From a virus, in IMG/VR virus record IMGVR_UViG_3300043464_000933, positions 1-40,932 of that record: 40,932 nt of DNA. One strand, 5' to 3'. This document shows, piece by piece, positions 2,488 to 38,170 of the stretch (within the stretch, counting starts at the first letter, position 1; each line of letters begins with the position of its first letter). The notes under the pieces are model-generated. The model saw only the letters and a program-made list of their open reading frames with translations. It was not told where the DNA came from and made no database searches. The position numbers and the translations under genes were made by a program.

Positions 2488-3816
2488 TTAATTTATTGTT
2501 TTGTGCAGACCCTTAAAATTAGCTTGCACCAGATACCTGAACGTGTCAAGGCAGTGGCCTATCTTTGGGTTCTTCTTCTTCCACGGGTCAAGGCTAAACC
2601 CGCTGTCCACCTTGGCCGCCAGTAGGTCATTAATCAACTCAATGTTGCCATCAGGATATAGGCTTTCGCTGTCAGCTTTGGCAAAGAATACCCAATCATA
2701 ACGAACCAATGCCGTGTTGCACATGAATCTGCTATTCTCATGGCTTGCGTTGAATGATGCTATCTTAAGTTGTGAATCGCTTAGGTTCATGGCCTGCTTG
2801 ATTATCTGATAGCCTGATATATTGCCTGATGTAAAAGCAGAACGATTCCCACCGCTTGCATCCCCGTTAATCCAAACCATCTCCGAGCCATAACGCTGGT
2901 CAAGGTACTTGCACATGGTAACAAGGTCATTATGCCTAACCGTTTCCAGCAGGTACACCGTGCCTTCTTTGGTTTCCGTTGGTGTGTGGTCAATCTGCCA
3001 AACCGTGCAGGTGTTCTTAATGTTGAAGTCAAAGGACAGGATAACATCGAACTCTTCAAACATTCCAGGGCTTTGTTCATGGTTGACCATTGCTGCCTTG
3101 TTGAACTTGGGTGCAAACAGGCTCTCTGGGTCTACTTGCCCCCACTCGCCTAAGGTGTAGACTGCATGATAGTAGGGATCAACTTCTGCTAACGAGTTAA
3201 GCCTTGCGATGTATTCAGGGTCAAGAAACTTATTATCAAGGTAAGTGGTCTTTAGCGTCTTAATCTGATCAACCTCATTGCTTGGTGGATGGTCAAAGAA
3301 CCTGCCCTTTAGCCAGTGGGTTTCATTGACAGGGTTGAAGGTTAGCCAGAACCGCTTTGGTTCCTCTGATTGACCTCTGAGCCGCAAGGTTACCTGTGTG
3401 AAGTCTTCAAGGCTAAATTCGTTCACCTCTTCCAGCCATACCTCATTGGCTGGGGCAAGTGATTTGATTTTCTGCTCGTCATCCAAGCCCATCATAATGA
3501 TTGAATTGGTTCCAAAGTTTATTTCAAACCTTGATTCGTAAAACGTCATGTACTGTTCAATCCCCCATTCTCCAGCTAAAGCTTTGGCCTCTGTCCAAAG
3601 GGATTGACGGATGGATGAACGGGTTTTGCGAAAGAAGTAACCCCGATAGTTGTTTCCTGTTACCAACTTGGATAAAAACCTTTGGTGCATGAATGCTGAC
3701 TTTCCTGAACCTGCGCCCCCGTAAAGTATATTGTAGATTCTTGGCTCATCCAAAAAGTCCAGATATACTTCGTTCCACAGGTCAGGATGGGTTACGTCTA
3801 ATTGCATCGGGGGCAA
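2488..3816 (-). CDS. terL: terminase large subunit (PBSX/Terminase_3-like)
   Basis: Walker A motif YGGAGSGKSAF near the N-terminus, about 440 aa, downstream of a small-terminase candidate. The ORF-track start at 3816 is a TTG. The first ATG is at 3807 (MQLDVTHP...) and is the more likely start. Confidence 0.9.
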   Translation of the reverse strand: MPPMQLDVTHPDLWNEVYLDFLDEPRIYNILYGGAGSGKSAFMHQRFLSKLVTGNNYRGYFFRKTRSSIRQSLWTEAKALAGEWGIEQYMTFYESRFEINFGTNSIIMMGLDDEQKIKSLAPANEVWLEEVNEFSLEDFTQVTLRLRGQSEEPKRFWLTFNPVNETHWLKGRFFDHPPSNEVDQIKTLKTTYLDNKFLDPEYIARLNSLAEVDPYYHAVYTLGEWGQVDPESLFAPKFNKAAMVNHEQSPGMFEEFDVILSFDFNIKNTCTVWQIDHTPTETKEGTVYLLETVRHNDLVTMCKYLDQRYGSEMVWINGDASGGNRSAFTSGNISGYQIIKQAMNLSDSQLKIASFNASHENSRFMCNTALVRYDWVFFAKADSESLYPDGNIELINDLLAAKVDSGFSLDPWKKKNPKIGHCLDTFRYLVQANFKGLHKTIN

Positions 3817-19258: not shown

Positions 19259-19756
19259 ATGAGCAAATCACTTTACGAAATCATCCACGACAAACTTGAA
19301 TTGTTGCAACAAGCAGAAGAATTAGATGGTGACATTTCAGAACTTACCGAGGCATGGGAGTACAACGAGGCCGAGGCCAAAGACAAGGTACAAGCCTACC
19401 TGCAAGTAATTGATTCCTTAGCGTTGGCTAACGAAGGTATAAGGGCAAACATTGACAGACTGGAAACCAAGGTCAACCAGAACCTGAAGGTTATTGAGAA
19501 CTTGCGGTCTAACCTGCTTATGGCAGTTGATAAGTTTGGCAAGTTTAAATATGACGAAGGGATGATGGCAGGCAGGTCGGTCTTTATTCAGCAGCGTCAA
19601 AAGTTAATTACCGATTTTTCTCTTATTGAAGACCAATACAAGTTTGAAAAAATTGAGGTTAAGATTTATACTGCCAAAATTAAGGAAGACTTGAAAAATA
19701 ACATTATGGTTCAGGGTGCTCATTTGGAAGAATCAAAAACCCTTGTAATAAAATGA
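19259..19756 (+). CDS. Siphovirus Gp157-like coiled-coil protein (165 aa)
   Basis: N-terminal SLYEI...ELLQQAEE..DGD, a long coiled coil, and a C-terminal VQGAHLEESKTLVIK ending fit the Gp157/Gam-like family layout. Confidence 0.5.
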   Translation: MSKSLYEIIHDKLELLQQAEELDGDISELTEAWEYNEAEAKDKVQAYLQVIDSLALANEGIRANIDRLETKVNQNLKVIENLRSNLLMAVDKFGKFKYDEGMMAGRSVFIQQRQKLITDFSLIEDQYKFEKIEVKIYTAKIKEDLKNNIMVQGAHLEESKTLVIK

Positions 19757-20409
19757 TGCAATTACGAGTCGACAAAATCTATTACATCAACCTGCGGAAG
19801 TCAGTAACCCGCAACAATGCGGCCAAAGACCACTTTAAGCAAATAGGGCTGGTTGATAAGCATGGCAACCCGCCTGTAAGGTTTGAAGCCTTGACAGCGG
19901 GTGACGCTGACTTTCCAATTAAGGGCAACTTTAGCCAAGGAGAGATAGGATGCTTTGCCAGCCATCGGGCTATCTGGAAGGATATGATTAAAAACAAATA
20001 TCTATCTGTTTTAATCCTTGAAGATGACGCACGATTTGAATTATATCCTGAATTGGATTTTGACACAGTTGATTTGGTTTACATGGTTTATTTTGGATGC
20101 TATGATCACACTAACAAGAAAGCAATTCCAGACACCATTAAACAGGAAAGCGAATTTTGCTTTCAAGTAAATAATGCTTGGCATACACACGCCTATATTA
20201 TTGGTTATCCATTTTTACAAAAGGTTTTAAAAGCTACATCTGAAATGCGAGGCTCAATAGACCAGCACTTAGTTGCCTTGCAGAAACACTATCCAATTCA
20301 TGCCATTATTCCCCAGGTCTGCCATCAGGCCAAATCAAGCATCAGTAACCCGTCCACAATCAAGCACACTATCCAGAACGTGCCTTTGGATATTTCTGAT
20401 TTGATTTAA
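19753..20409 (+). CDS. glycosyltransferase family 25 (218 aa)
   Basis: KIYYINLRKSVTR..., GEIGCFASHRAIWKDMI and LILEDDARF are the GT25 (LPS/LOS beta-1,4-galactosyltransferase-type) hallmarks. Confidence 0.8.
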   Translation: MMQLRVDKIYYINLRKSVTRNNAAKDHFKQIGLVDKHGNPPVRFEALTAGDADFPIKGNFSQGEIGCFASHRAIWKDMIKNKYLSVLILEDDARFELYPELDFDTVDLVYMVYFGCYDHTNKKAIPDTIKQESEFCFQVNNAWHTHAYIIGYPFLQKVLKATSEMRGSIDQHLVALQKHYPIHAIIPQVCHQAKSSISNPSTIKHTIQNVPLDISDLI

Positions 20410-21802: not shown

Positions 21803-22930
21803 ATGTCAGTTGTAACCAATGGTGCCAATATATGCCCTGCATTATTGCTCACCCTAATGGACGTAATCGGGGAGAACGCAAGCCCTACCAGAGGTTTATC
21901 TGCTGGTGCATTGCTTGCATTACACGACCCCGATAACGTTCGACAAGGCCCAGAAGTGCGATCAATCGCAGAATCTGGCCACATTCGTACCGCCCGTGTC
22001 GCTTTCAAACGTCCTTCAATCATCTCTCAAACTTCTTCATCTGATTCAGGTGGATGTTTTGAAGGTGATCCAAATCCGTATGTAGAGGACACAATTGAAA
22101 TTGACGGATACCGTGAAATTACTGGTTCTGTTGAAATCGAAACCGTCCGTACTTTTTGCCGAGAGTATTCAAACCTTGAGAACTTAGGTCTGAGGCTTTC
22201 CGATAACAAGTCAGTACAAGCCACCTTTGAAAATGGTATGGCTCAAACTTCTTTGTCTGTCATCCGTGAAATCGGCCAATCAATCTTGTTTGACCGAAGA
22301 GCTGTGTTGGAAGGCATTGATAAGGACGTTGTTGACTATTTGGCCGCTAACTACGGTAAGTGGGAAGATGGTTCTAACACCAAGACCTTCACCGTAATGG
22401 GTTCTGATGGTGCGCCAAACAAAGACCAGATTTCAAGAATGCTTCAGCAACTTGGCAATCTGGGCATGATAGGAACACCTATCCATGTAGGTTCTGACAC
22501 GGGAGCACTTGACAGGTTCCTCGCCTGGGAGCGTCAATTCGCAGCTTACTGTTGCCAAGATGGAGGCATTGATTTTGGAGGTATTACTTCCAAGATGGGT
22601 AAATGGTATCGCTCACGCCAGATTACATCTGAAGTGGATGATGATGCTGTTTTCACCTTCTTCCCTGGGCTGGTTAAGTACATCCCATTCCTTAAGAATG
22701 TTGGAAACTTTGGCGTTAAAATCGGTAACACTTGGTTGGCAACATTGCCAGTTCCTGAGGTTCCAGGCTTGACCCTTGACTTCGACATCCGAGAAGATGA
22801 ATGTGAGCGTTCCTACATCTACCGACACAGCCAGAACTTTACCGTTTGGGCTGGTGAAGGTTACTTCAAGACCAATGACGCATTAGAAGGCGTTAACGGC
22901 TTGGTTCTTAGCTCTGCTGTTCAGAGTTAA
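21803..22930 (+). CDS. major capsid protein candidate (375 aa)
   Basis: Position after the scaffold-like gene, size typical of HK97-fold capsid proteins, strong terminator downstream. No direct motif evidence. Confidence 0.55.
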   Translation: MSVVTNGANICPALLLTLMDVIGENASPTRGLSAGALLALHDPDNVRQGPEVRSIAESGHIRTARVAFKRPSIISQTSSSDSGGCFEGDPNPYVEDTIEIDGYREITGSVEIETVRTFCREYSNLENLGLRLSDNKSVQATFENGMAQTSLSVIREIGQSILFDRRAVLEGIDKDVVDYLAANYGKWEDGSNTKTFTVMGSDGAPNKDQISRMLQQLGNLGMIGTPIHVGSDTGALDRFLAWERQFAAYCCQDGGIDFGGITSKMGKWYRSRQITSEVDDDAVFTFFPGLVKYIPFLKNVGNFGVKIGNTWLATLPVPEVPGLTLDFDIREDECERSYIYRHSQNFTVWAGEGYFKTNDALEGVNGLVLSSAVQS

Positions 22931-22987
22931 ACCAATCAGACAGGCATCGGATATTGGATCATCGAGGATGACTTCATTGTCCAATGA
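22931..22987 (+). other. in-frame open extension behind the capsid-gene TAA (18 codons plus TGA)
   Basis: Reads TNQTGIGYWIIEDDFIVQ-stop in the capsid frame and contains no ATG, GTG or TTG. The core is 11/13 identical to the C-terminus of the 578-aa protein (30781..30822). Confidence 0.6.
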
Positions 22988-22993
22988 ACTCAG

Positions 22994-23027
22994 GCAGGAG
23001 GGCATAAAAACCTTCCTGCTTTTTTTT
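22994..23027 (+). terminator. intrinsic terminator of the capsid cassette
   Basis: GCAGGAGGG / CCTTCCTGC: a 9-bp stem with one G-U pair and an 8-nt loop, followed by eight T. Confidence 0.75.
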
Positions 23028-23047
23028 GCCTTATTTTATTAAATATT

Positions 23048-24270: not shown

Positions 24271-27200
24271 CTATTTCTTCACCACCCTGACCCCTCGAAT
24301 TAAATAAACACCCGCAGGCATTTTACTCAGGTCAAATTTAATTCCGTCAATTTCTGTGATTCCATCGGTAGGGTTTGGATAGCCAAATCTGCTAATAGCC
24401 TGCCCACTACACCCTAACAACTCCACCTCACTTACCTGCATGAACGATGTACCTCGAAGCGTTGGGAAGGTCACACGGTATTTCGAGTAGCTAACGGTAT
24501 TGACAAACACTGGCAACACAACCCGCTGCCGTCTGGCTGTGAATAGTGGAACGCTTTCAGTTGCAACTTGAACCCAAACAAAGCCATTCCAGCCTTGCAG
24601 GTTGTAGCTGGCAGGATCACGCTCTGGCGCATCATTGCCAGATGTGATTGATAGTTGAACTACGGGGCTGTGCGTTCTTGGCACGTTGACAATAAAGCCT
24701 GAACCAAGCCCTGTAAAGTTGAGGTACTTAAAGTTCACGCTATTGTCAATAACCCTGTAAGGCTCTTCATTTAGTGGTGGTGGCCTGCTGTCAACTCTGG
24801 AGCCATTGACAATCTCAACCACATCACTTGGCTGTGTTACGTCTACCAATGTGTTGCATGGCTGCGGCTCAACCACTACATTCGGAGCGCAGGCCAATAG
24901 CCTGACTTCAGCTATTTGCATCACACTACAGTTCACACACGACCCACCAACAACAGTAGGGATAATCAAACGATAATGCCTGTAAGCAGTTGAGTTCGTA
25001 AATGCTATTTCCTGAGCTTGGAAGCGAGCTGTAAACAAGGCAACAGCACCAGATGCAATGGCTGTGTAATTCACCCCGTCCAATGAACCTGATAGCTGGT
25101 AAGAACGTGGATCACGTGTTGCTTCGTCATTAGCCGATACCAGCACCAAAGCCCGTACAATTGCCAGCGTGTCTGTGTTAATTGTCAATCCTGAATTTGC
25201 ACCTTGGAAGTTCAAGTACTTGGTGGCTGTGTTGTTGTCGATGGCTTTGGCTACTTCTTCGCCAGCAGGTGAAGTTGTGCCGATGGCCGTTATAGCGTTG
25301 GTAGGCTTTACGATGTTGCGCAAATTGGTAGTGCATGGCTGAACTGGTGGAACAACAATGCTGCAAGTGCGGCTTAAACTATCCGCAGGTGGCGTTCCCA
25401 CACATCCAGCAGGTGAAGCGGTAAAGGTTCGGGTTTGCACACCTGACACGCAGGCTGTCCATGCTGAGTAGGTGAATGAACAAGCAGGAGGTTGAACGCC
25501 ACCCGTTGATAGATTTATGTTGTCCAGGTAGATGTAATTGCCATAAGCAGAACGGCTAACAAATACAAACTGAACTGATGAAGCCGATGGAAGTCCACTA
25601 AGGCTTACCGTTTCCGTTCTCCATTGAGATGCTGTCGGAGTATATGAACTAACAAGGGATGGTGCAGTTGCAAGTTCAGCCCCGCCCTTACGATACACAA
25701 CTTGATAGCTTGTACCGCAATTGAGCAAGGCTAAAATGGTAAGGGTGTCAGCCCTTCCTGTGTATTGAGCATATGCCACATCAAATCTGAGTTGTGAAGC
25801 GGCCACGCCACCTAATGAAATTACAGGTGTGAACAAACTATCAAACCTTCCTGTTGAATTAGGCGAAGGGTAGTTCATCGCTCTTATGCTTTTTGAACTC
25901 GTGCCAAAGCCACCAGCAAGACTTGTTACCGACCAAGTGTTGTCTCCATTCGGATTGATAACTTCCCAGCCTGTTGGTATTGCAGAAGCAGCTTCGAAGT
26001 TTTGGCTAAATGGTGCATTGGTGTTTCCATTCAACCTCACCACGGCATCCTTGCCTGTATGTGTGCAACCGTTTTTAGTCACAGCAACATTGTAGGTTCC
26101 AACAGTAGATGCGCTGGCATTGGGTACGCTTATGCTTTGATTGGTAGAGGTAAAGCCATTTGCCCCAGTCCATTGGTAGGTAGCACCTGTTATACCTGTC
26201 ACGCCTAAATTGATTGTGCCGCCAGCGCAAACCCTTCTGGTTCCTGTTATGCTGTACTCTTCAATCTGATAGCCAGTCAGACAGGTAGCCGTGCTTACCC
26301 TTGACCGCATTAATGTAGATGGCAGCACACCAAACCCTTGTGTGAAGTCTATGCTTCCATTGGTATGGCAATAACTCATGATAGTGCCAGACTGCGGTAT
26401 TCTTGCACCCGTGTAGCATGTAGGTGAACCAAATGGCTCTACAGTTCCGCAAAAATCAATTGGTCTGCGTGTTCCATCAGGCCACAACCATCCACACCAA
26501 TGGGTATGGTTTGAACCTAAGTTGTGACCAATCTCATGGGCAATCACATTAACAGTCCACGAATAAACAGGGAATTGAGAATAATTCAATGCCGCATTAC
26601 TGTATGCAATATTGGTGGCACTTGTTGAGCTGCATAGTGAATTGAGGTAAGCCAAGCCGCCTAAGTTCCCAACTTTCAATGAAATCAGATGTGCGATGTT
26701 GCCATTATAAGTAATGCTTTGAATCCTTGTTCTGAACGCAGTAAGTGCAGCATCGGATGAAGTTCCAGGGTATGGGTCAAGTGTTGTCCAGATATGCAAT
26801 TGGCTCAGATTAACTTGTATCAAATCCCTTGCATACAGCAGCTTTATAATATTAAACACACCATTCACATAGTTGGTAGTGGTTGTGATGTTGCTACCAT
26901 TCTGAATGAAACCCTGATTGTCAATTTCAAAGTAGTTGTTTACAATTCTGCAACCAGCGGATTTGTTGTCATACATTTGCTCTTCCTGCTTGGAATCACC
27001 ATCAGGTGTGTGGCAGTTAAATGGATTCTTTTCTGGCAAACTCATATCGTTGTACACTACATGTAGAGCATTGGTTTTGCCAATGAACTTTCTATCCATC
27101 ACCCCAATGTTGTAGTTTCCGCTTGGAGTAGACACCATACCAAATACTTCGTTTTCAAAAACGCTGATGGCAGCCAGATGGGTAGGCTTACCCGCTACAT

Positions 27201-27516
27201 AGCCTTTGAAGTAAAACCCTTTAGCTGGTTGGCTTGATTTGCCATCCGATGTGGTAACAATAAAATCAGGTGAATGAGGTTCCCACAATTCCAATTCAAG
27301 TTGGCCTATGCCTGCTATGTTTAGCGAAGCCTTTTGGCCTTTGTAGGATTTCAGCAACTCATAACCTTCTTTGTTGAAGTTGAAGTATTGAGCCTGACTT
27401 TTCCAGCCTGCATCTTTGATGCTTTTGTTGGGTTGGAAGATCGGGTTGAGGTTGAAAACTTGGGCTTGTGCCATCGTAGACAGCACAAGCAGGAAGGTGA
27501 TGAGTGTGTGTGTCAT
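24271..27516 (-). CDS. secreted multidomain reprolysin-like zinc metalloprotease with T9SS-type C-terminal sorting signal (1081 aa)
   Basis: Signal peptide MTHTLITFLLVLSTMAQA-Q. HEIGHNLGSNH at 26524..26538. An Ig-like repeat (ATYQWTGANGFTSTNQ...GTYNVAVTKNGC) and a PTGWEVINPNGDNTW module. Two ~150-aa discoidin-like repeats (TKYLNF / FKYLNF ... RDP.SY ... FTAR). C-terminus: YPNPTDGITEIDGIKFDLSKMPAGVYLIRGVRVVKK. Confidence 0.8.
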   Translation of the reverse strand: MTHTLITFLLVLSTMAQAQVFNLNPIFQPNKSIKDAGWKSQAQYFNFNKEGYELLKSYKGQKASLNIAGIGQLELELWEPHSPDFIVTTSDGKSSQPAKGFYFKGYVAGKPTHLAAISVFENEVFGMVSTPSGNYNIGVMDRKFIGKTNALHVVYNDMSLPEKNPFNCHTPDGDSKQEEQMYDNKSAGCRIVNNYFEIDNQGFIQNGSNITTTTNYVNGVFNIIKLLYARDLIQVNLSQLHIWTTLDPYPGTSSDAALTAFRTRIQSITYNGNIAHLISLKVGNLGGLAYLNSLCSSTSATNIAYSNAALNYSQFPVYSWTVNVIAHEIGHNLGSNHTHWCGWLWPDGTRRPIDFCGTVEPFGSPTCYTGARIPQSGTIMSYCHTNGSIDFTQGFGVLPSTLMRSRVSTATCLTGYQIEEYSITGTRRVCAGGTINLGVTGITGATYQWTGANGFTSTNQSISVPNASASTVGTYNVAVTKNGCTHTGKDAVVRLNGNTNAPFSQNFEAASAIPTGWEVINPNGDNTWSVTSLAGGFGTSSKSIRAMNYPSPNSTGRFDSLFTPVISLGGVAASQLRFDVAYAQYTGRADTLTILALLNCGTSYQVVYRKGGAELATAPSLVSSYTPTASQWRTETVSLSGLPSASSVQFVFVSRSAYGNYIYLDNINLSTGGVQPPACSFTYSAWTACVSGVQTRTFTASPAGCVGTPPADSLSRTCSIVVPPVQPCTTNLRNIVKPTNAITAIGTTSPAGEEVAKAIDNNTATKYLNFQGANSGLTINTDTLAIVRALVLVSANDEATRDPRSYQLSGSLDGVNYTAIASGAVALFTARFQAQEIAFTNSTAYRHYRLIIPTVVGGSCVNCSVMQIAEVRLLACAPNVVVEPQPCNTLVDVTQPSDVVEIVNGSRVDSRPPPLNEEPYRVIDNSVNFKYLNFTGLGSGFIVNVPRTHSPVVQLSITSGNDAPERDPASYNLQGWNGFVWVQVATESVPLFTARRQRVVLPVFVNTVSYSKYRVTFPTLRGTSFMQVSEVELLGCSGQAISRFGYPNPTDGITEIDGIKFDLSKMPAGVYLIRGVRVVKK

Positions 27517-27523
27517 GTGTTTG

Positions 27524-27973
27524 TTAATAAAATGTTTTAGCGGTAGCTAACCACCAGTTTGGAAGATTGAAAATATAGGCAATGCTTTGAAAGCAGTTAG
27601 TACTTTTTTCTCCAGAGTAAATTTTTAGCAAAGTAGTCCAGTATTTTGCATCGTAACGATTGCCAAGAATAGTGTAAAACCTGCCTTCATCGAAGCCGCC
27701 CATGTTAATTACTGAAAAAGACCGTTGCATAGTTTTTTGTTCTGCTATCCATTGGTCTAATGTTCTTGTAATATGAAATCCAGAAATAGTGGATTCACAA
27801 ATATACAAGCGTTTATTTGACTCAAACGAGCGAACAAGTTGACAATGGTTGTATTCAGTATTCATTCCTTTTCTTAATAACCACCAAAAAAACTGATTCA
27901 AAATGTTTCCTTTTGTGTTGCGAATAAGAAGGATAGATTTATCTTTAATTTTAGTTAAATCGTCCTGCTGCAT
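27524..27973 (-). CDS. possible permuted papain-like (NlpC/P60-related) hydrolase (149 aa)
   Basis: His-then-Cys order: YNHCQLV...ICEST...STNCFQSIAYIF. The track start at 28015 is a TTG; the ATG is at 27973. Weak, by-eye assignment. Confidence 0.3.
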   Translation of the reverse strand: MQQDDLTKIKDKSILLIRNTKGNILNQFFWWLLRKGMNTEYNHCQLVRSFESNKRLYICESTISGFHITRTLDQWIAEQKTMQRSFSVINMGGFDEGRFYTILGNRYDAKYWTTLLKIYSGEKSTNCFQSIAYIFNLPNWWLATAKTFY

Positions 27974-28323: not shown

Positions 28324-29178
28324 TTAAATTGCTCTTCCGAGACTTGTTTGAAATGCTTGAACTAAATTGTAAAATACTAAAGATTCTCTCGCAGTCAATG
28401 CGCTTCCAAGTGATGCAAAACATATACCTGCATTAGAAGGTATTGGATTTATGCTGCGGGAAAACAATAAAACAGCACTTGTAGGAACTGTTAAAGATCC
28501 ACCAGCATTAGACGCTACCGATATTCCGTTTCTGTAAAGTATTGTACTATTTGAAGCTGGACGAACCCCACAATAAAAGCCTGCTGTTGCAACACCTGAA
28601 CTTAATAGGTCTGTTGCATTTCTCGCATTTATTGTTGCACCTAAAAGCCCAGTTCCAAACCTTGCTATTTGAAAAGCACTACTTGTAACAAGATTTCCAC
28701 TGACCCCCATAACAGCAGTAGAATTGACTGTTGGTGCTACATTGATATACGCAGAAAGATGCACTGAACTTGTATTCGCCTGATTGATACTTGGCGTGTA
28801 AAATGTATTTCCAGCATTTCCTGCTGCACCAGTACTTTTACCTCCATCCTCTGTAAATGTTAATCCCGCTCCTGTCCACGATATTCTAAATGCTGCATCG
28901 GTATCTATTACATTTTTAAGGTTCCATTTGTGAGTTATGGCTGTTGTTCCGCCTAAAAACGGATACATAGCATCCATTTTATCCCAAAGTCCGTTGGCTA
29001 TTAAACTGTAAACAAAGTTGTTGCAGGCATCAATTCTGGCTCTTGAAGCAGCATATCCATCTGCACTCATTGCATTTGCCAACGCCATTACATTCGGATG
29101 TATAGATTCAGGAAACAAACCAAATGTAATATCACCAATAACTTTAACACCGATGCCTTGTATGCTTGTTAATCCCAT
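28324..29178 (-). CDS. tail fibre / receptor-binding protein candidate (284 aa)
   Basis: Beta-rich composition rich in G, S, T, A and N. ATG overlaps the stop of the upstream fibre gene (TAATG). The N-terminus GIGVKVIGDITF resembles the GIGYW.IED.FIV motif. Confidence 0.5.
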   Translation of the reverse strand: MGLTSIQGIGVKVIGDITFGLFPESIHPNVMALANAMSADGYAASRARIDACNNFVYSLIANGLWDKMDAMYPFLGGTTAITHKWNLKNVIDTDAAFRISWTGAGLTFTEDGGKSTGAAGNAGNTFYTPSINQANTSSVHLSAYINVAPTVNSTAVMGVSGNLVTSSAFQIARFGTGLLGATINARNATDLLSSGVATAGFYCGVRPASNSTILYRNGISVASNAGGSLTVPTSAVLLFSRSINPIPSNAGICFASLGSALTARESLVFYNLVQAFQTSLGRAI

Positions 29179-30776
29179 TAGTTTAAAAAAGTTGTCGTTA
29201 CAATTGAAGCAGTGATTGAATTGTCGGCATCTGCTGTAACCCAGTCAGCTTGCAAATCAATGGCAAGTGTGCCAGTGGTATCAATTGAGCCAGAAGTAGC
29301 ACTCACCTGAAAAAAGTTTAACAAATCAGTTCCACTATGATTCAATCTGCCTATGCCCATAAACTGCAAAGTTCCTGTTGCTCCTGCTGTTCTGCAAGTG
29401 AGAGTAAATTCAGCATCGAAAAACACATTGGTAAGTCCACCGTTGTGAGTAAACGTAATTGTACCAACTGCAACACCTCCAATAGTTAGCTTTAATGCAC
29501 AATCTTGACTACCAGTGTCTTGGCTGTAAGTTCCCGACACATAGATTTTTATTGTTTTACCTACTCCAAAAAAATTGGCAGGCAGTGTTGCGCTACCAGT
29601 TAGTGTTCCTAAAAGTGTTGTTGAAGTTGCTGTATTTACTACAGTTACGCTTGAGGTTTGAGCGAATACCCCTAAAGCTGTTAAGTCCGCACTTTTAGTT
29701 AAATTTCCTGATGTGTCAGCCACCAGTAGGCCAGAACTACTGCCCGTTGCAAAGTCAGGGTTTCGTTCTGCGGTAATTATTTTGGTATAACCAGAATCCT
29801 TGCGCATTGTAAGGCTGGTGTTGCTTGACACCGTGTCGCACCAAATGCTACCGTTTGTCGTTCCTGTTATTGTTACACCACTTGTTGGTGTAAGTACCAT
29901 CAAAGGAACTGAGCCTGTGCTTCCAGATATAGCAATTGCAGCTGAAAATGTTTTTATTCCTGCAAATGTTTGCGCCGCTGTCGTTACTACGCCACCAAAA
30001 GAAGCGTCCGCAGGTTGAAGGTTTAGGGTTGTGCCTCCTGTAATTGTTGCACCATTGGCATTTGGGGTAGCTCCAATTGCAGCCATTGTTGTTACGCCTC
30101 CTCCTCCTCCTCCTGCCAACGCCTGACCATTTGCCCGCAAATACCCTGTACACCTCCAGTTGCCACTTCCTTCGCTAACGAATACAGCCACATCACCCGC
30201 AGCAGTTGTTATGTTAGCAGTCGTTGGCAGAATAAGAGAAGTAGCGTTGTGGGTAAGAATTAAAGCACCCGAGAACCTAACAATTCTTACAGCTCCTGCC
30301 TGTGCAGTTCCAAGTGCTGTTATGGTTGTAGTTCCTGTAACTACTACGTAGTTGCCCGTTGCGGCTGCTATATTAGTTGTTCCTGCGCTGGCAATGTCTG
30401 TACCTTTTGCATCATTGACAGTTCCAGTCAATGAACCGCCTGCCAATGGCAGAAATGAACCACTACCCCCCTGAGCGGTAAAGGTGTTGCCTGTTATGTC
30501 ATATTCGCCAAATTCGCCAGTAGTCAGGTTAATAGCTGCGTCTGATATAGCATTAGCAGCCGTTGGAAACACTATTAGAACGTTGGAACTTGGGCCGCCC
30601 GTAAGTTGGTAAATTGTGTTTGTGTCCAAATTGCTGGCTGCAATCAGGGCTTGAATCTGCGCCCGTGTTTGGGTGACACCGAACTTACAAAGGTTTATCC
30701 AGTTGGCAAATTGTGCCTCTGTTGGTGTGTCGCCTGTGTTATAGGCGGCTAAAACTGCATTTCTTGTTGTGCTCAT
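29178..30776 (-). CDS. tail fibre protein candidate (532 aa)
   Basis: N-terminal TGDTPTEAQFANWI motif, followed by long G/T/A/S-rich repetitive beta-type sequence and a Gly6 hinge. Confidence 0.55.
   Translation of the reverse strand: MSTTRNAVLAAYNTGDTPTEAQFANWINLCKFGVTQTRAQIQALIAASNLDTNTIYQLTGGPSSNVLIVFPTAANAISDAAINLTTGEFGEYDITGNTFTAQGGSGSFLPLAGGSLTGTVNDAKGTDIASAGTTNIAAATGNYVVVTGTTTITALGTAQAGAVRIVRFSGALILTHNATSLILPTTANITTAAGDVAVFVSEGSGNWRCTGYLRANGQALAGGGGGGVTTMAAIGATPNANGATITGGTTLNLQPADASFGGVVTTAAQTFAGIKTFSAAIAISGSTGSVPLMVLTPTSGVTITGTTNGSIWCDTVSSNTSLTMRKDSGYTKIITAERNPDFATGSSSGLLVADTSGNLTKSADLTALGVFAQTSSVTVVNTATSTTLLGTLTGSATLPANFFGVGKTIKIYVSGTYSQDTGSQDCALKLTIGGVAVGTITFTHNGGLTNVFFDAEFTLTCRTAGATGTLQFMGIGRLNHSGTDLLNFFQVSATSGSIDTTGTLAIDLQADWVTADADNSITASIVTTTFLN
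29184..29190 (-). other. T TTT TTA slippery heptamer 6 nt before the stop of the 532-aa fibre gene
   Basis: The minus strand reads ACT TTT TTA AAC TAA TG. The heptamer is in X XXY YYZ phase, and the -1 frame runs straight into the 284-aa ORF. Confidence 0.35.
30097..30114. repeat. (CCT)6 trinucleotide repeat encoding the Gly6 hinge of the fibre
   Basis: Six perfect CCT units on the plus strand, which are GGA/AGG units on the coding strand. Confidence 0.9.
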
Positions 30777-30777
30777 C

Positions 30778-32514
30778 TTATGTTACGATAAAAGTGTCTT
30801 CAATAACCCAATAGCCGATGCCCACCAGCAATGGTGGTTGACTTGGGAAATCACCTCCGTCAAGGCAATCCCACGTCCTGCATGATCGGCATAGTTTTTT
30901 TCCCGCTACGCTAACGCTCTGGGCTGCTATTAAATTGTCATCAATCACCCAAAGGTTAGATAGGTCATGTAAGCCTATTGCCGTTGGTTGAACTGTTAAG
31001 TCCTGCCCTCCTGTTCCGTTTTGGTAGGTTAATAGTCGGGTAAAGGATATTGTGTTTAGGTCATCAGAATAGTCAACCTGATAGGATGCTATTTCTCCTG
31101 ATGTTAGCCTTGCAATTGCGATTATCTTATCGTCTAACAATTGAAGTTCAAGCACGTCAAAGTTAGCCGAAACATCAGATTCTGCTGTGAGAAACGTACT
31201 GTCATCAATACGTCTGGCAAAGCACACCAAGCCCAAGTTTGAGCCTACGAAGGCAATTATACCCACAGCGTCCTGAACGTGGCTTGTAAGGCTTGTGAAG
31301 GCCGTGAATGATAGGTCGGTTAGGGTGTTGGTTAATATTCCAGTAGATTGAAAGTAAGCCAGCCTAACATCGCCCGTTCCGTTCCGTTTAACAAACATAA
31401 ACGACTTACCAATGGAAACTGGATAAACTGCAAGCAATTGGTCTAAAACCTGTTGAACCGCTAAAAGTTGTTCAAATGTTTTTCCGTTTGTTATTACTGC
31501 TACACTTGTTAAGGTTGCAGGAGAAACTTGGTTGTATCTTGTTGTTGCAAACCTATATCCTCCTAAAGGCTGCAAACTATAAATATAATCTGGAGATGTA
31601 AATAAAGCAAATACACTTATCCTTTCTCCGTCAACGAACACAGCTGGCTCGTTTGTATTAACAGTCTGCAACCAGGCAAGACTGAAATCAGTTCCTCCAA
31701 CTTGCTTAACCTCTCGCCCTGTTATTGGTTTGTTGCCAATCAGGCACGCATCAATTAACGTTTCGTTGTCAGGGTCAATGATTGTTTGCAGAATGTCTGG
31801 CGTTAGTTTCCCTGGTTGCCAGATACCAATCTGAACATCGTTAAGTGGGTAGATGGTTTGCCCGTTCCTGCTTTTAGCCTTGAATCCTGCAATAGAAGTA
31901 ATAAATGGGTTTTCGTAAATAGAAGGAAACCTTCTAAATGATACCTCACTAACCAGTTGGCCAATGTCATCAAAGGTCAGCAGTATTTGATTCAGGCTTG
32001 AAATCTTTGGTAAAGCCTGAATAGTATTTTGGCTATAAGTAATATCCCAAAAGATTGTGTCAGGCTGCTCACCTGCAAGTAGTTGGTTCAATAACTCAAC
32101 CTCAAGTGGGCTAACTTCTTGGCACTCTATTGGCAAATCGCCAAAGCCCCCAATGATGTCAAGTGAAAAGGAATCAACAACGCCTGAACTCAATTCAAAG
32201 CTGTACATCCAGAACCTATTAACTCCATCATGGTAGTCCGATGTTATCTTCAGGTAGGCACTTGACCCTTCAGCGTTTACAACCTCAACCCTCGCTACGT
32301 AGCAGGACGGGTTGGCCGTGTTGTAGTTATTGATGATTGTCTGTATTGCTGACTGTACGCTGGCAAAGCTTGTAACACCTACCACAATGGCCGATATGAC
32401 GGCCTCGGCTGCTGTTGCCGCTGCTTGCAGGGCTACATCACACCCGTCTGTTTCAGGGTCGATGGCCGTTAGCTTAGTGGTGCAATCAGGATAAAAATCT
32501 GCTAAGAATTTCAT
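30778..32514 (-). CDS. tail-module structural protein (578 aa) ending in GIGYWVIEDTFIVT
   Basis: Tightly packed between two other large tail-module ORFs. No enzymatic motif. The C-terminal 14 aa match the post-stop extension of the capsid gene. Confidence 0.5.
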   Translation of the reverse strand: MKFLADFYPDCTTKLTAIDPETDGCDVALQAAATAAEAVISAIVVGVTSFASVQSAIQTIINNYNTANPSCYVARVEVVNAEGSSAYLKITSDYHDGVNRFWMYSFELSSGVVDSFSLDIIGGFGDLPIECQEVSPLEVELLNQLLAGEQPDTIFWDITYSQNTIQALPKISSLNQILLTFDDIGQLVSEVSFRRFPSIYENPFITSIAGFKAKSRNGQTIYPLNDVQIGIWQPGKLTPDILQTIIDPDNETLIDACLIGNKPITGREVKQVGGTDFSLAWLQTVNTNEPAVFVDGERISVFALFTSPDYIYSLQPLGGYRFATTRYNQVSPATLTSVAVITNGKTFEQLLAVQQVLDQLLAVYPVSIGKSFMFVKRNGTGDVRLAYFQSTGILTNTLTDLSFTAFTSLTSHVQDAVGIIAFVGSNLGLVCFARRIDDSTFLTAESDVSANFDVLELQLLDDKIIAIARLTSGEIASYQVDYSDDLNTISFTRLLTYQNGTGGQDLTVQPTAIGLHDLSNLWVIDDNLIAAQSVSVAGKKLCRSCRTWDCLDGGDFPSQPPLLVGIGYWVIEDTFIVT

Positions 32515-35659: not shown

Positions 35660-38170
35660 TTAGTTTACAAACTGATTATTTAAGATGACTGAAGTGCGAT
35701 TGCCTGACCTGATGGACTTGCTGAACCCTTTGCCGTCTAAGCTGATGGCGGCAACGGGTAAGGACTTGATGGAACGATTCAGGTCATCCAACTTGCGCTC
35801 AATGCCCCTGCTATTGCTGCCTTTCGTTCTCCCTGATGTCAGGCTCATGTAGTCAAGGACTATCTTAGGTATGTCATCATTCTTGATACCCATATCAAGT
35901 AGGGGCTTGTTTTGCCTTGCAGTCATAACCCTTTCGCCCTTGGATAATCTGGCCATGATGCTGTCGCTGGTTCCAGTTCCTGGTCCTTCAACATATTCCG
36001 TACCCTTAGCGAACTCTGGCATCTTTTGTGCTGCAATAAATCCAATCTGTGCAACAAGCGTTGCCCCAACTATTGCAGCCAAAGGAGGTACAGAAGCATA
36101 CTTTACAATTTGAGGTGCTGCTGTGAAGATTGCATTGGCAATTGCTGCCTGTTGTTCCGCCCTGAATTGCTTCTGTCTAATCTCCCGCTCTTTCACTCTG
36201 AATCTATCTCTTGCCTGTGCCTGCATTTCCTCATTACCTTCAAACATTCTCAGTTGTTCGTCAAACAATCGCTGGCTTGCTGACAACTCAGCAGCCAATG
36301 CTTGCTGGCGAAGATTCATAAATCCATTAAATACTGTCTGTGCTAATTGCAATGACTCTTGCAGGTATAGCATGTTTTCATCAGCAATTCTTTGGTTTGT
36401 TTCAGCTGCTTCTTTTATGTCATCATCCTTGTTTTTCTGTGCACGTTCTTTTTTTTCTTTTTCTGCTTTTTCGTCTATTTTTTGCAATTCTTCGTTAAGG
36501 GTTTCTCGCTTTTTAATACTATCTTGTTGATCTTGTAATCTTTGCTGATTAAACTTTTTAGCTTCTTCAGAAAGGTTATCATATTGGCTTTTGGCCTGAT
36601 TAAATTCATCAGTGTAAAACTTTTGCATTTCTGCCAATATCTGCTTGTTGGCCTCTTTAACATCCAAAATTCTTGACTCTGAATTTTTACCAGCCTCAAC
36701 TAAACCAAGCGCATAAAACCTTTTATCAATATCCAATGCAGCCTGACCAAATTTAGCTTTGATTTCAAGCACCTCAACTTCGTTTTGCATTGTCTGTTGT
36801 GCTGTTGCATCTAAGGCCAATGATAGTTTTTTAAGCCTAATTTGGATTTTCTCTTGCCTTTCCAATTCAGCAATCAGGGCTTGATATTCCTTGGTTAGCC
36901 TTTTTATTCTGTCTGCATCAGATTCTGTTTCTGGGGGTGGTTTATTTAATATAGCCTTTATCATTCCCTCAATTGCCTCTGTTACTTTCTTTGCGGATTC
37001 AAATTGAATGGAAAGGCTTTTATTTAATTCATCGGCTCCTTCAACTGCGTAGCTTTTAGTAATTTTTTTAGCCACTTCCATTCTTTCCTGATATTCGGCT
37101 AAGAAATCATTTAGCACACCAATTTGGTCGGCAGTATCACCAAACTTGCCAGTGATTCTTATTATTTCTTTGATATCCTCGATAATCGGGTCGGCAACTT
37201 TAAAGGCTTCCTTTTCTACAATCTGGTTTATATCTGAGGTAAAAGTAATCAGACCTCCTAAAGCATTATTTGCGTAATCAATGATTAAATCAAATTGACC
37301 TTTTGAGTTTTTGCCTAAAATTTTTAGAAACTCAGTCCAATTTGTTGAAAGAAGGTTTAGCTTTCCAGTTAACGTATCAACATTTTTAGCTGCTTCTTCC
37401 CCAAAAGTCTTTTCCAGTTCAGCCGCAAACTTTGGCAGGAAATCCCTTGATATAACTTGGCCTTGTTCCAGCATCTTCCCCAATGCCTTTTCGGTTACAC
37501 CAATAGAACGGGCTGCAATAGCGAATGAACCAGGCAACCGTTCACCTAATTGCCCCCTTAGTTCTTCTGCCGAAACAGTACCTTTGCTTATCATCTGCGT
37601 GATTGCAAGGAACGCCCCTTGTGATTGTTCAGCACTAAGGCCAAAGGCTGCTACGGCTTTAGTAACCCCTTCAAATATCTTGATGGTATCTTCCTGGCTT
37701 AGGTTTGATGCTTTGGAAGCAGCCGCAAAGCTGGAATAGGTGCGAATAACCGTTTCCAGTTCAAGCCCGTACTTTCTGGTTAAACCCGTTAGATATTGAG
37801 TAACCTTTCCACCCTCGGCCGCACTACCTGATGCGAAGTTAATACGCTTCTGGTATTGCTCCATTTTGGCGGTGAGCATTACCAACTCTTTACCAAAAGC
37901 CAATACAGCACCAACCGAAAAGGCTGCCAATAGTTGCCCCTTAATTCCATCCAAAGCCCCTCCAAACTTTTTGACGGATTGTGTGCTGGACTCAACATTA
38001 CCCTTTACCTGGTTGGTTGATTTTTCAGTTTCCTTACCTAACTTCTTGGCCTGCTCAATAGCATCCTTTTCCGCTTGGGTAAGTTTGTCAAAAGCAGCCC
38101 TTGCACCATCAATGCTTCCTGCTCCTTCAACTTTGTAACTTATTACGATTTCGTCCTGTCTTAATGCCAT
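35660..38170 (-). CDS. tape measure protein (836 aa)
   Basis: Tape-measure core pattern SAEQSQGAFLAITQMISKGTVSAEELRGQLGERLPGSFAIAARSIGVTEKALGKMLEQGQV, followed by a long coiled coil and hydrophobic C-terminal segments. Confidence 0.75.
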   Translation of the reverse strand: MALRQDEIVISYKVEGAGSIDGARAAFDKLTQAEKDAIEQAKKLGKETEKSTNQVKGNVESSTQSVKKFGGALDGIKGQLLAAFSVGAVLAFGKELVMLTAKMEQYQKRINFASGSAAEGGKVTQYLTGLTRKYGLELETVIRTYSSFAAASKASNLSQEDTIKIFEGVTKAVAAFGLSAEQSQGAFLAITQMISKGTVSAEELRGQLGERLPGSFAIAARSIGVTEKALGKMLEQGQVISRDFLPKFAAELEKTFGEEAAKNVDTLTGKLNLLSTNWTEFLKILGKNSKGQFDLIIDYANNALGGLITFTSDINQIVEKEAFKVADPIIEDIKEIIRITGKFGDTADQIGVLNDFLAEYQERMEVAKKITKSYAVEGADELNKSLSIQFESAKKVTEAIEGMIKAILNKPPPETESDADRIKRLTKEYQALIAELERQEKIQIRLKKLSLALDATAQQTMQNEVEVLEIKAKFGQAALDIDKRFYALGLVEAGKNSESRILDVKEANKQILAEMQKFYTDEFNQAKSQYDNLSEEAKKFNQQRLQDQQDSIKKRETLNEELQKIDEKAEKEKKERAQKNKDDDIKEAAETNQRIADENMLYLQESLQLAQTVFNGFMNLRQQALAAELSASQRLFDEQLRMFEGNEEMQAQARDRFRVKEREIRQKQFRAEQQAAIANAIFTAAPQIVKYASVPPLAAIVGATLVAQIGFIAAQKMPEFAKGTEYVEGPGTGTSDSIMARLSKGERVMTARQNKPLLDMGIKNDDIPKIVLDYMSLTSGRTKGSNSRGIERKLDDLNRSIKSLPVAAISLDGKGFSKSIRSGNRTSVILNNQFVN

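Follow-up and report, generated by a model that had tools for sequence, protein, structure and literature searches.

A conserved stop codon followed by an in-frame C-terminal tag at the end of a tailed-phage capsid gene

Results

Capsid gene, stop codon and in-frame extension

We analysed the 40,932 nucleotides of IMG/VR virus record IMGVR_UViG_3300043464_000933 (hereafter, the window), a siphovirus-like genome in which the major capsid gene is followed by an open extension that keeps its reading frame. The capsid open reading frame (ORF) comprises 375 codons and ends in TAA, and frame 0 past this stop stays open for 18 codons before it closes with TGA (Table 1). The extension reads ACC AAT CAG ACA GGC ATC GGA TAT TGG ATC ATC GAG GAT GAC TTC ATT GTC CAA TGA, and its translation, TNQTGIGYWIIEDDFIVQ and a stop, is composed of the linker TNQT and the peptide GIGYWIIEDDFIVQ, which we refer to as the tag. 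A second copy, GIGYWVIEDTFIVT, forms the C-terminus of a 578-amino acid protein encoded in the tail module and is fused to it directly.

Table 1 Features of the window and of related loci. Positions without a locus number refer to the window.
Feature	Position	Strand	Basis or remark
Coding region of the major capsid protein, 375 codons, predicted HK97 fold	21803..22927	+	AlphaFold2 model, Foldseek; ORF with stop, 21803-22930
Conserved, presumably leaky stop (TAA here; TGA in most relatives), next base A	22928..22930	+	
Linker TNQT, four codons, between stop and tag	22931..22942	+	
C-terminal tag GIGYWIIEDDFIVQ, 14 codons, presumably accessible solely via read-through	22943..22984	+	Fits tag family
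Second stop, TGA; makes the tag the exact C-terminus, as in directly tagged proteins	22985..22987	+	
Intrinsic-terminator-like hairpin and T-run (22992-23021 and onward); closes the head operon	22992..23031	+	
578-amino acid tail-module protein, tag fused directly (GIGYWVIEDTFIVT at 30781-30822)	30778..32514	-	
532-amino acid fibre-like protein, N-terminal anchor motif MSTTRNAVLAAYNTGDTPTEAQFANWI (~30687-30776)	29178..30776	-	Presumed partner of both tags
Tape-measure gene	35660-38170	-	
GIGVKVIGDITF, N-terminus of 284-amino acid ORF	29116-29157	-	
1081-amino acid protein at end of tail module	24271-27516	-	
Hairpin in tag-coding RNA	22949-22982; L002 ~2749-2805		
Glycosyltransferase family 25 gene	19753-20409; L001 737-1402; L117 7950-8606; L124 1091-1666	+ (window)	
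Portal gene (PF04860) with intein	L130 2920-5880		
LysM-like tagged proteins	L047 (Flavobacterium phage fF4, MN850656) 27247-27546; L102-L116		
Tags GIGKWKIEDDF[EI]V[ST]	L101 435-479; L109 4941-4985		
Second N-motif subtype	L012, L024, L036, L038-L040, L066, L079, L103, L114, L115		

An initial annotation of the window had drawn attention to the open extension, to its lack of start codons and to its similarity to the end of the 578-amino acid protein, and re-reading of the frames bore out all three. The extension contains no in-frame ATG, GTG or TTG, and the two copies agree at 11 of 13 residues but at only 27 of 39 nucleotides, with seven of the 11 identical residues specified by different codons. 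A six-frame BLOSUM scan of the window with a score cut-off of 22 gave 73 and 72 for the capsid-extension and 578-amino acid copies, respectively, and 32 for the next best segment; chance therefore does not account for the two copies, in agreement with the initial annotation. A scan with a position-specific scoring matrix detected no further weak tags in the window or in the loci fetched from databases. The looser copy that had been proposed at the N-terminus of the 284-amino acid ORF, GIGVKVIGDITF, was not supported, given that it scored below 22, lies at the wrong end of its protein and is out of register, its F occurring one position late. This segment, which lacks the W/M and E residues of the tag and is shifted by one residue, resembles divergent tags such as GIGVWEIGTTFIVQ.

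The capsid ORF had no match in PHROG, Pfam or NCBIfam, nucleotide and protein BLAST searches of isolated phages returned no match to the capsid region, and a search for related loci with the capsid sequence yielded no confirmed relative. An exhaustive HMMER search defined a capsid family of 157 representatives. We modelled the protein with AlphaFold2 from a 30-sequence alignment, which was used instead of a 3-sequence alignment that gave a predicted local distance difference test score (pLDDT) of 29, and obtained a pLDDT of 81 and a predicted template modelling score of 0.80. Foldseek comparison of this model with the PDB gave 75 matches at E<=1e-3, the best 50 of which are HK97-fold shell proteins and nearly all phage capsids; the top matches were Douge gp8 (E 9e-8) followed by the capsid proteins of Che8, P22, T5 and phi29. 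The predicted structure thus confirmed the 375-amino acid ORF as an HK97-fold major capsid protein, and the capsid assignment of the initial annotation was upheld by fold rather than by sequence libraries. Upstream of the capsid gene, a 290-amino acid ORF showed weak, sub-threshold matches to coiled-coil-type Pfam families, and no match to a scaffold or protease family was found. The gene order around the capsid gene is kept in relatives. A gene for a glycosyltransferase of family 25 lies just upstream of the head genes in every capsid-family relative examined, even at 34% capsid identity.

Conservation of the stop and the extension in capsid relatives

The 90% cluster to which the window's capsid protein belongs contains 15 distinct protein variants, all 15 of which are 375 amino acids long. 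A second cluster, 57% identical to the window's, contains two variants, both of 378 amino acids; all 17 variants of the two clades terminate at the same position. At least 13 contigs, which derive from independent JGI, ENA and Logan samples, contain the stop together with the tag. Six contigs of the window's clade (L004 and L118-L122) have TGA as the stop and two (the window and L117) have TAA, with an invariant TNQT linker throughout. All contigs of the 57% clade use TGA; there, the linker is a single codon (S), GIGYWAIEDDFEVQ comes next, and TAA and a terminator hairpin complete the arrangement. TGA is thus the usual codon at the capsid stop, and TAA is the minority allele.

Comparison of the extensions revealed that nearly all changes are synonymous. 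The extension of L118 differs from that of the window by six synonymous changes and an I-to-V replacement, with proportions of synonymous and non-synonymous differences (Nei-Gojobori) of 0.89 and 0.03, respectively; that of L004 differs by two synonymous changes, and that of L117 by a Y-to-F replacement at the most variable position of the tag. The extensions of L123 and L002 are separated by three synonymous changes and no non-synonymous change, and the tags of the window and L002 are identical at 12 of 14 residues but at only 28 of 42 nucleotides. These patterns show purifying selection on the extension peptide and support its translation, by read-through of the stop. Selection at the peptide level had been proposed from the two copies in the window, together with a comparison of related phages; in those relatives the conserved stop and the open, codon-conserved extension do co-occur.

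The initial annotation had left room for a base-call error or a recent nonsense mutation at the capsid stop. Given that the stop and the tag are kept across clades and independent samples, with synonymous changes between them, both are refuted. Its other proposal, low-level read-through of the stop, is supported. We found no sense-codon allele or fused form of the capsid protein in a database of 5.8 billion proteins, and none of the 150 capsid-family representatives listed carried a fused tag. As a negative control, the capsid lineage next in similarity (P0003; four contigs at 34% identity) has TAG as its stop, unconstrained sequence beyond it and the tag in none of the frames.

A second family with a stop codon before the tag

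A motif scan identified the same arrangement in a second family, whose proteins comprise 139 to 166 amino acids and are unrelated to the capsid protein (L016 and L128-L130). In L016, an ORF of 139 codons is followed by TGA, the residues RFG, GIGEMEIEDTFVIA and a stop. The layout of TGA, three codons, tag and stop is common to the family, with the DNA reading TGA AGG T[TA]T GG[TA] and then encoding GIGEMEIE[DSN]TFVI[AG] and a stop; changes within the tag are mostly synonymous. Homologues of the L016 protein at 55-91% identity, including one cluster of 69 members, all end in TYV. In L130 the gene with the stop and the tag sits between an adjacent gene for a 659-amino acid fibre, which begins with the N-terminal motif described below, and a portal gene. 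This portal gene bears an intein with a LAGLIDADG endonuclease. The fetched loci, 2.84 Mb in total with 197 unique tag-like C-termini, contained no third family of this type.

The tag as a C-terminal module of unrelated virion proteins

We scanned IMG/VR, metagenomes and GTDB genomes with degenerate DNA patterns for the tag. The consensus G-I-G-x-[W/M]-x-I-E-x-x-F-x-[V/I]-x-stop emerged as the exact end of many proteins, with 197 unique tag-like C-termini, and the distance from the first G to the stop is 14 residues in all of them. The proteins that carry the tag are unrelated to each other and include LysM-like proteins of ~95 amino acids, a baseplate wedge protein of phrog_180, and proteins of 167-189, 241, 340, 578 and 1220 amino acids. 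Named sources are mostly Bacteroidota, including prophages of Flavobacterium, Bizionia, Formosa, Chitinophaga and Saprospiraceae as well as Flavobacterium phage fF4, and many of the contigs come from one large IMG/VR sample (3300045988). The tag is covered by no Pfam, PHROG or NCBIfam model and by no PDB sequence, and literature searches with the strings of the tag and of the N-terminal motif retrieved no paper. The T4 fibritin foldon was considered as a relative and rejected, since a tag profile did not match it in a search of PDB sequences. Judged from sequence, the tag is a widespread, undescribed C-terminal module that Bacteroidota phages carry on virion proteins unrelated to each other.

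The LysM-like tagged proteins are common in Bacteroidota prophages and are all annotated as hypothetical. Tags in two contigs (L101 and L109) binned to metagenome-assembled genomes of Pseudomonadales and Bermanella may indicate either a range beyond Bacteroidota phages or contaminated bins. A contig binned to a Methanolobus genome (L112) shares its length of 20,115 bp, its tag and its neighbouring gene with IMG/VR contig 3300028601_000156.

Linkage of tagged genes to fibre genes with a conserved N-terminal motif

The tagged 578-amino acid gene lies downstream of the tape-measure gene and of a gene for a 760-amino acid virion protein. One base past its stop begins a gene for a 532-amino acid fibre-like protein. 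Neither the 578- nor the 532-amino acid protein matched PHROG, Pfam or NCBIfam, and protein P0168 and the 532-amino acid protein had no useful relatives by sequence in the PDB. The 532-amino acid protein begins with a motif, M..x..LKxYFETGDKPTxxQFxDLID (the N-motif), that very often opens the gene directly behind a tagged gene, and a hidden Markov model of this motif matched it as the sole ORF in the window (E 5e-14). Of 68 tag occurrences, 27 are followed at a gap of -1 to +57 nucleotides by a gene that opens with the N-motif, and the model detected an N-motif ORF in most tag loci, including those of the LysM class and that of fF4. For the reverse test we scanned IMG/VR for FETGDKPT and counted the N-motif genes with an upstream ORF: at least 44 of 83 come after a gene with the tag, or a diverged form of it (GIGDWIIETNFEVQ, GVGYWAIEDNFIVQ or GIGVWEIGTTFIVQ, for example), at its end. 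The notion of a shared docking tag put forward in the initial annotation is thereby supported and sharpened, in that proteins whose genes lie immediately upstream of fibre genes commonly end exactly in the tag; docking itself would be its presumed function.

One viral contig (IMGVR_UViG_2834062395_000001; L165 and L188) contains at least four FETGDKPT N-motif genes, some of them in tandem, as if more than one fibre competed for a single docking site. Another N-motif subtype, W[FM]xTGxKPTQAQFWASWxSFWHK, follows genes whose conserved C-terminus is of another kind (...NPYRVVLFIEYIG or ...ENRPPYYTLAYII) and resembles a phage tail-collar fibre end. This subtype and its C-terminus may constitute a parallel docking pair.

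Relation of the N-motif to fibre anchors of extracellular contractile injection systems

We built a profile of the N-motif from 26 N-termini and searched it against PDB sequences. The four matches all lie in N-terminal regions of their chains: AfpX13 (8uur, E 0.0026), Pvc13 of PlPVC1 (9qgo, residues 32-53, E 0.0041), All3316 of a cyanobacterial thylakoid contractile injection system (tCIS; 7b5h, E 0.079) and a Pvc13-like fibre (8on5, E 0.79). Entry 9QGO is the map of the fiber and baseplate-fiber interaction, and in this cryo-electron microscopy structure the Pvc13 trimer, through two conserved helices at residues 29-55, touches Pvc12, a wedge protein of the baseplate, in the latter's C-terminal region (PMC12546770). 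Fibres of extracellular contractile injection systems (eCIS) have been classed by their N-terminal baseplate anchors, and in ~90% of loci their genes are located downstream of adaptor genes (Tail_P2_I or Afp11/12 homologues) (PMC12923769). The profile matches indicate, at modest E-values, that the N-terminal motif of the 532-amino acid protein is homologous to the Pvc13/Afp13 anchor helices (eBAP1/2-like).

The phage and eCIS arrangements have in common a helical motif at the fibre N-terminus, LKxxF..G..P.Q..F.DLID, and a fibre gene directly downstream of an adaptor gene, as for the 532-amino acid gene after the 578-amino acid gene. In Pvc12 the contact is made through the C-terminal region of the adaptor, and docking through the C-terminal tag would be its counterpart in the phage. 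They differ in that the phage adaptors are unrelated proteins that share just a 14-residue terminal tag, and in that one phage tag would be placed on the capsid protein by way of a stop codon.

A candidate protease and adhesin gene

The last tail-module gene of the window encodes a 1081-amino acid protein that combines a reprolysin-like (M12B) zinc metalloprotease domain with an F5/8 type C (discoidin) domain. It is a candidate for an unusual virion-associated protease and adhesin.

Discussion

We consider it likely, on the strength of the comparative sequence data, that leaky termination at the capsid stop gives rise to a minor capsid isoform with a fibre-docking plug. Most ribosomes would end at the stop and release the 375-amino acid major capsid protein. 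A small fraction would read through by near-cognate decoding, of UGA in most strains and of UAA in the window phage, and would insert one amino acid before adding the linker and tag, for a total of ~19 residues ending in GIGYWIIEDDFIVQ. Given that many related phages carry the tag on a tail protein encoded beside the fibre gene, occasional read-through probably places fibre-docking sites on the head. The capsid tag would be the same plug as that of the 578-amino acid tail protein, fitting the N-terminal anchor helices of the fibre, so that the 532-amino acid protein could dock on the head, through a presumably exposed capsid C-terminus, as well as on the tail tip and thereby form head fibres. 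Only a few capsid subunits per head would display the docking site, with the stop keeping the tagged form sub-stoichiometric; it may have been retained because tagging of every subunit would be harmful or wasteful.

Several observations weigh against this interpretation. No read-through stimulator was identified at the capsid stop. The base after the stop is A in all cases, yet TGA-A also occurs at seven of the 13 TGA stops of ordinary genes in the window, which speaks against this base as a special leaky context. The tag-coding RNA of the capsid lineages can form a hairpin of 13-20 bp, which arises because the Ile codon AUC and the Asp codon GAU are reverse complements; it is not supported as a stimulator, given that it forms equally well in directly fused tags of the same peptide and is missing in the second family. 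The window has TAA, which is normally the tightest stop. In loci of the LysM class, the next gene encodes a protein of 280-290 amino acids starting with MAR[TS]K.QIK, and the N-motif fibre is located 2-3 kb further downstream. The profile matches to Pvc13 are modest (E ~0.003), and Pvc12 is without a recognisable tag; contact between tag and anchor is for these reasons proposed from analogy and gene linkage.

The extension might also be read through and selected while the tag serves another role, as an oligomerisation hairpin, a tag for a chaperone or processing enzyme, or a peptide adhesin for glycans or the cell surface. The great diversity of the carriers, from LysM-like proteins of ~95 amino acids and the phrog_180 wedge protein to proteins of 340 and 1220 amino acids, would fit such a role, as would the fact that the fibre is not the immediate neighbour in LysM-class loci; no structure or family covers the tag, and its alternating hydrophobic pattern is suggestive of a beta-hairpin. 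However, tag genes and N-motif fibre genes adjoin each other, counted from either side, far more often than chance would allow, most tag loci include an N-motif ORF, and in PlPVC1 the homologous fibre segment touches the C-terminal region of a baseplate protein encoded upstream. We therefore regard another role as unlikely, although not negligible. Alternatively, the frame could yield a free peptide of 13-18 residues, unfused to the capsid protein, by re-initiation or from a non-canonical start such as the ATC codon (the Ile of GIG) that is conserved across the capsid clades, given that the selection pattern speaks for translation of the frame but not for a particular route. Such a product appears improbable. 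In-frame ATG, GTG and TTG are missing, and the tag is covalently C-terminal on structural proteins in ~200 other cases. In both families with a stop before the tag, moreover, tag and upstream ORF stay in one frame, separated by a linker of one to four codons, across deep divergence, and a free peptide would need neither the frame nor the short linker.

That the extension is a non-functional relic, left by a recent nonsense mutation or as the 3' end of a deleted tagged gene, is very hard to reconcile with the data. A deletion could leave such a stub, given that elsewhere genes end normally in the tag, with a terminator behind it, and agreement in frame has a one-in-three chance. Nevertheless, the contigs do not represent one clonal sequence, stop and extension persist in 17 variants of clades that are 57% identical, with synonymous sites near saturation and the peptide retained, the protein database yielded neither a sense-codon nor a fused form, and the same architecture recurs in an unrelated second family. 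We give almost no credence to the idea that the stop is not a stop, whether by reassignment, a suppressor transfer RNA, selenocysteine or a sequencing error. TAG or TGA is reassigned in some phages that infect Bacteroidota. In the window, however, 44 ordinary ORFs of normal lengths end in TAA (26), TGA (13) or TAG (5), there is no transfer RNA gene, and TAA and TGA alternate at the capsid site, so that reassignment and suppression are excluded together with selenocysteine, for which UGA is obligatory and which is incompatible with TAA in the window and L117; independent JGI, ENA and Logan assemblies agree on the sequence. A frameshift-derived extension, by -1 or +1 slippage, is likewise ruled out because the tag is in capsid frame 0 in all contigs and the window's other frames past the stop are tagless.

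Returning to read-through into a docking tag, the arrangement can be likened both to the A1 protein of Qbeta and to frameshift-derived capsid extensions, and is a member of neither group. The coat gene of Qbeta ends in a leaky stop with an in-frame extension behind it, and the next base is A (UGA-A), as in the window. The Qbeta virion contains the C-terminally extended coat protein as a minor isoform with a role in host interaction; the corresponding product in the window phage would be the tagged capsid isoform. Qbeta, though, is a single-stranded RNA phage (Leviviricetes) with a non-HK97 coat protein, whereas the window represents a double-stranded DNA tailed phage, and the A1 extension is a domain of ~196 amino acids, compared with 19 residues ending in the 14-residue tag here; the two extensions show no sequence relationship. 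Frameshift-derived capsid extensions have been described for T7 (10B), T3, Lactobacillus phage A2, and Listeria phages A118, A500 and PSA, and extensions of this type are the only ones covered for tailed-phage capsids in a review of recoding (PMC5009743). As proposed for the window phage, recoding at the end of the capsid gene of these double-stranded DNA phages produces a major and a minor, C-terminally extended form, with the added part presumably displayed on the head. In the T7 10B, A2 and PSA type, ribosomes slip by -1 or +1 into another frame, often adding immunoglobulin-like domains, whereas the extension described here lies in frame 0 behind a stop, needs no slippery site and encodes a short putative docking peptide. 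With phi29 gp8.5 and T4 Hoc there is a functional analogy only, the sub-stoichiometric or accessory display of an adhesin on the capsid. Both are proteins in their own right that attach directly to the lattice of the capsid, whereas in the window phage recoding would make the docking peptide part of a few subunits.

A broader scheme can be put forward tentatively. The 14-residue peptide (GIGx[W/M]xIExxFx[V/I]x-stop) could be a universal plug that recruits fibres with an LKxYFETGDKPT anchor to any virion protein, and in at least two lineages it would be placed behind a leaky stop on head-associated proteins, with termination efficiency setting the number of head fibres. We regard this scheme as possible, with somewhat more doubt than confidence.

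Our literature searches retrieved no paper on read-through in structural genes of tailed phages. If the broader scheme is correct, it would be the first case of programmed stop-codon read-through in such a gene of a double-stranded DNA tailed phage, coupled to a portable two-part docking system. Confirmation of read-through would extend the capsid-isoform strategy from single-stranded RNA phages to tailed double-stranded DNA phages, and would imply that a stop codon can be under selection as a valve for stoichiometry. Gene callers cut off products of this kind, and conserved peptides behind a stop are invisible in protein databases. The tag and the anchor motif constitute an unannotated, widespread and very short pair, presumably for docking, in Bacteroidota phages. 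With this pair, 'dark' phage genomes can be annotated for fibres and their adaptors by a simple rule, and it could serve as a compact handle for phage retargeting and for the display of proteins on capsids.

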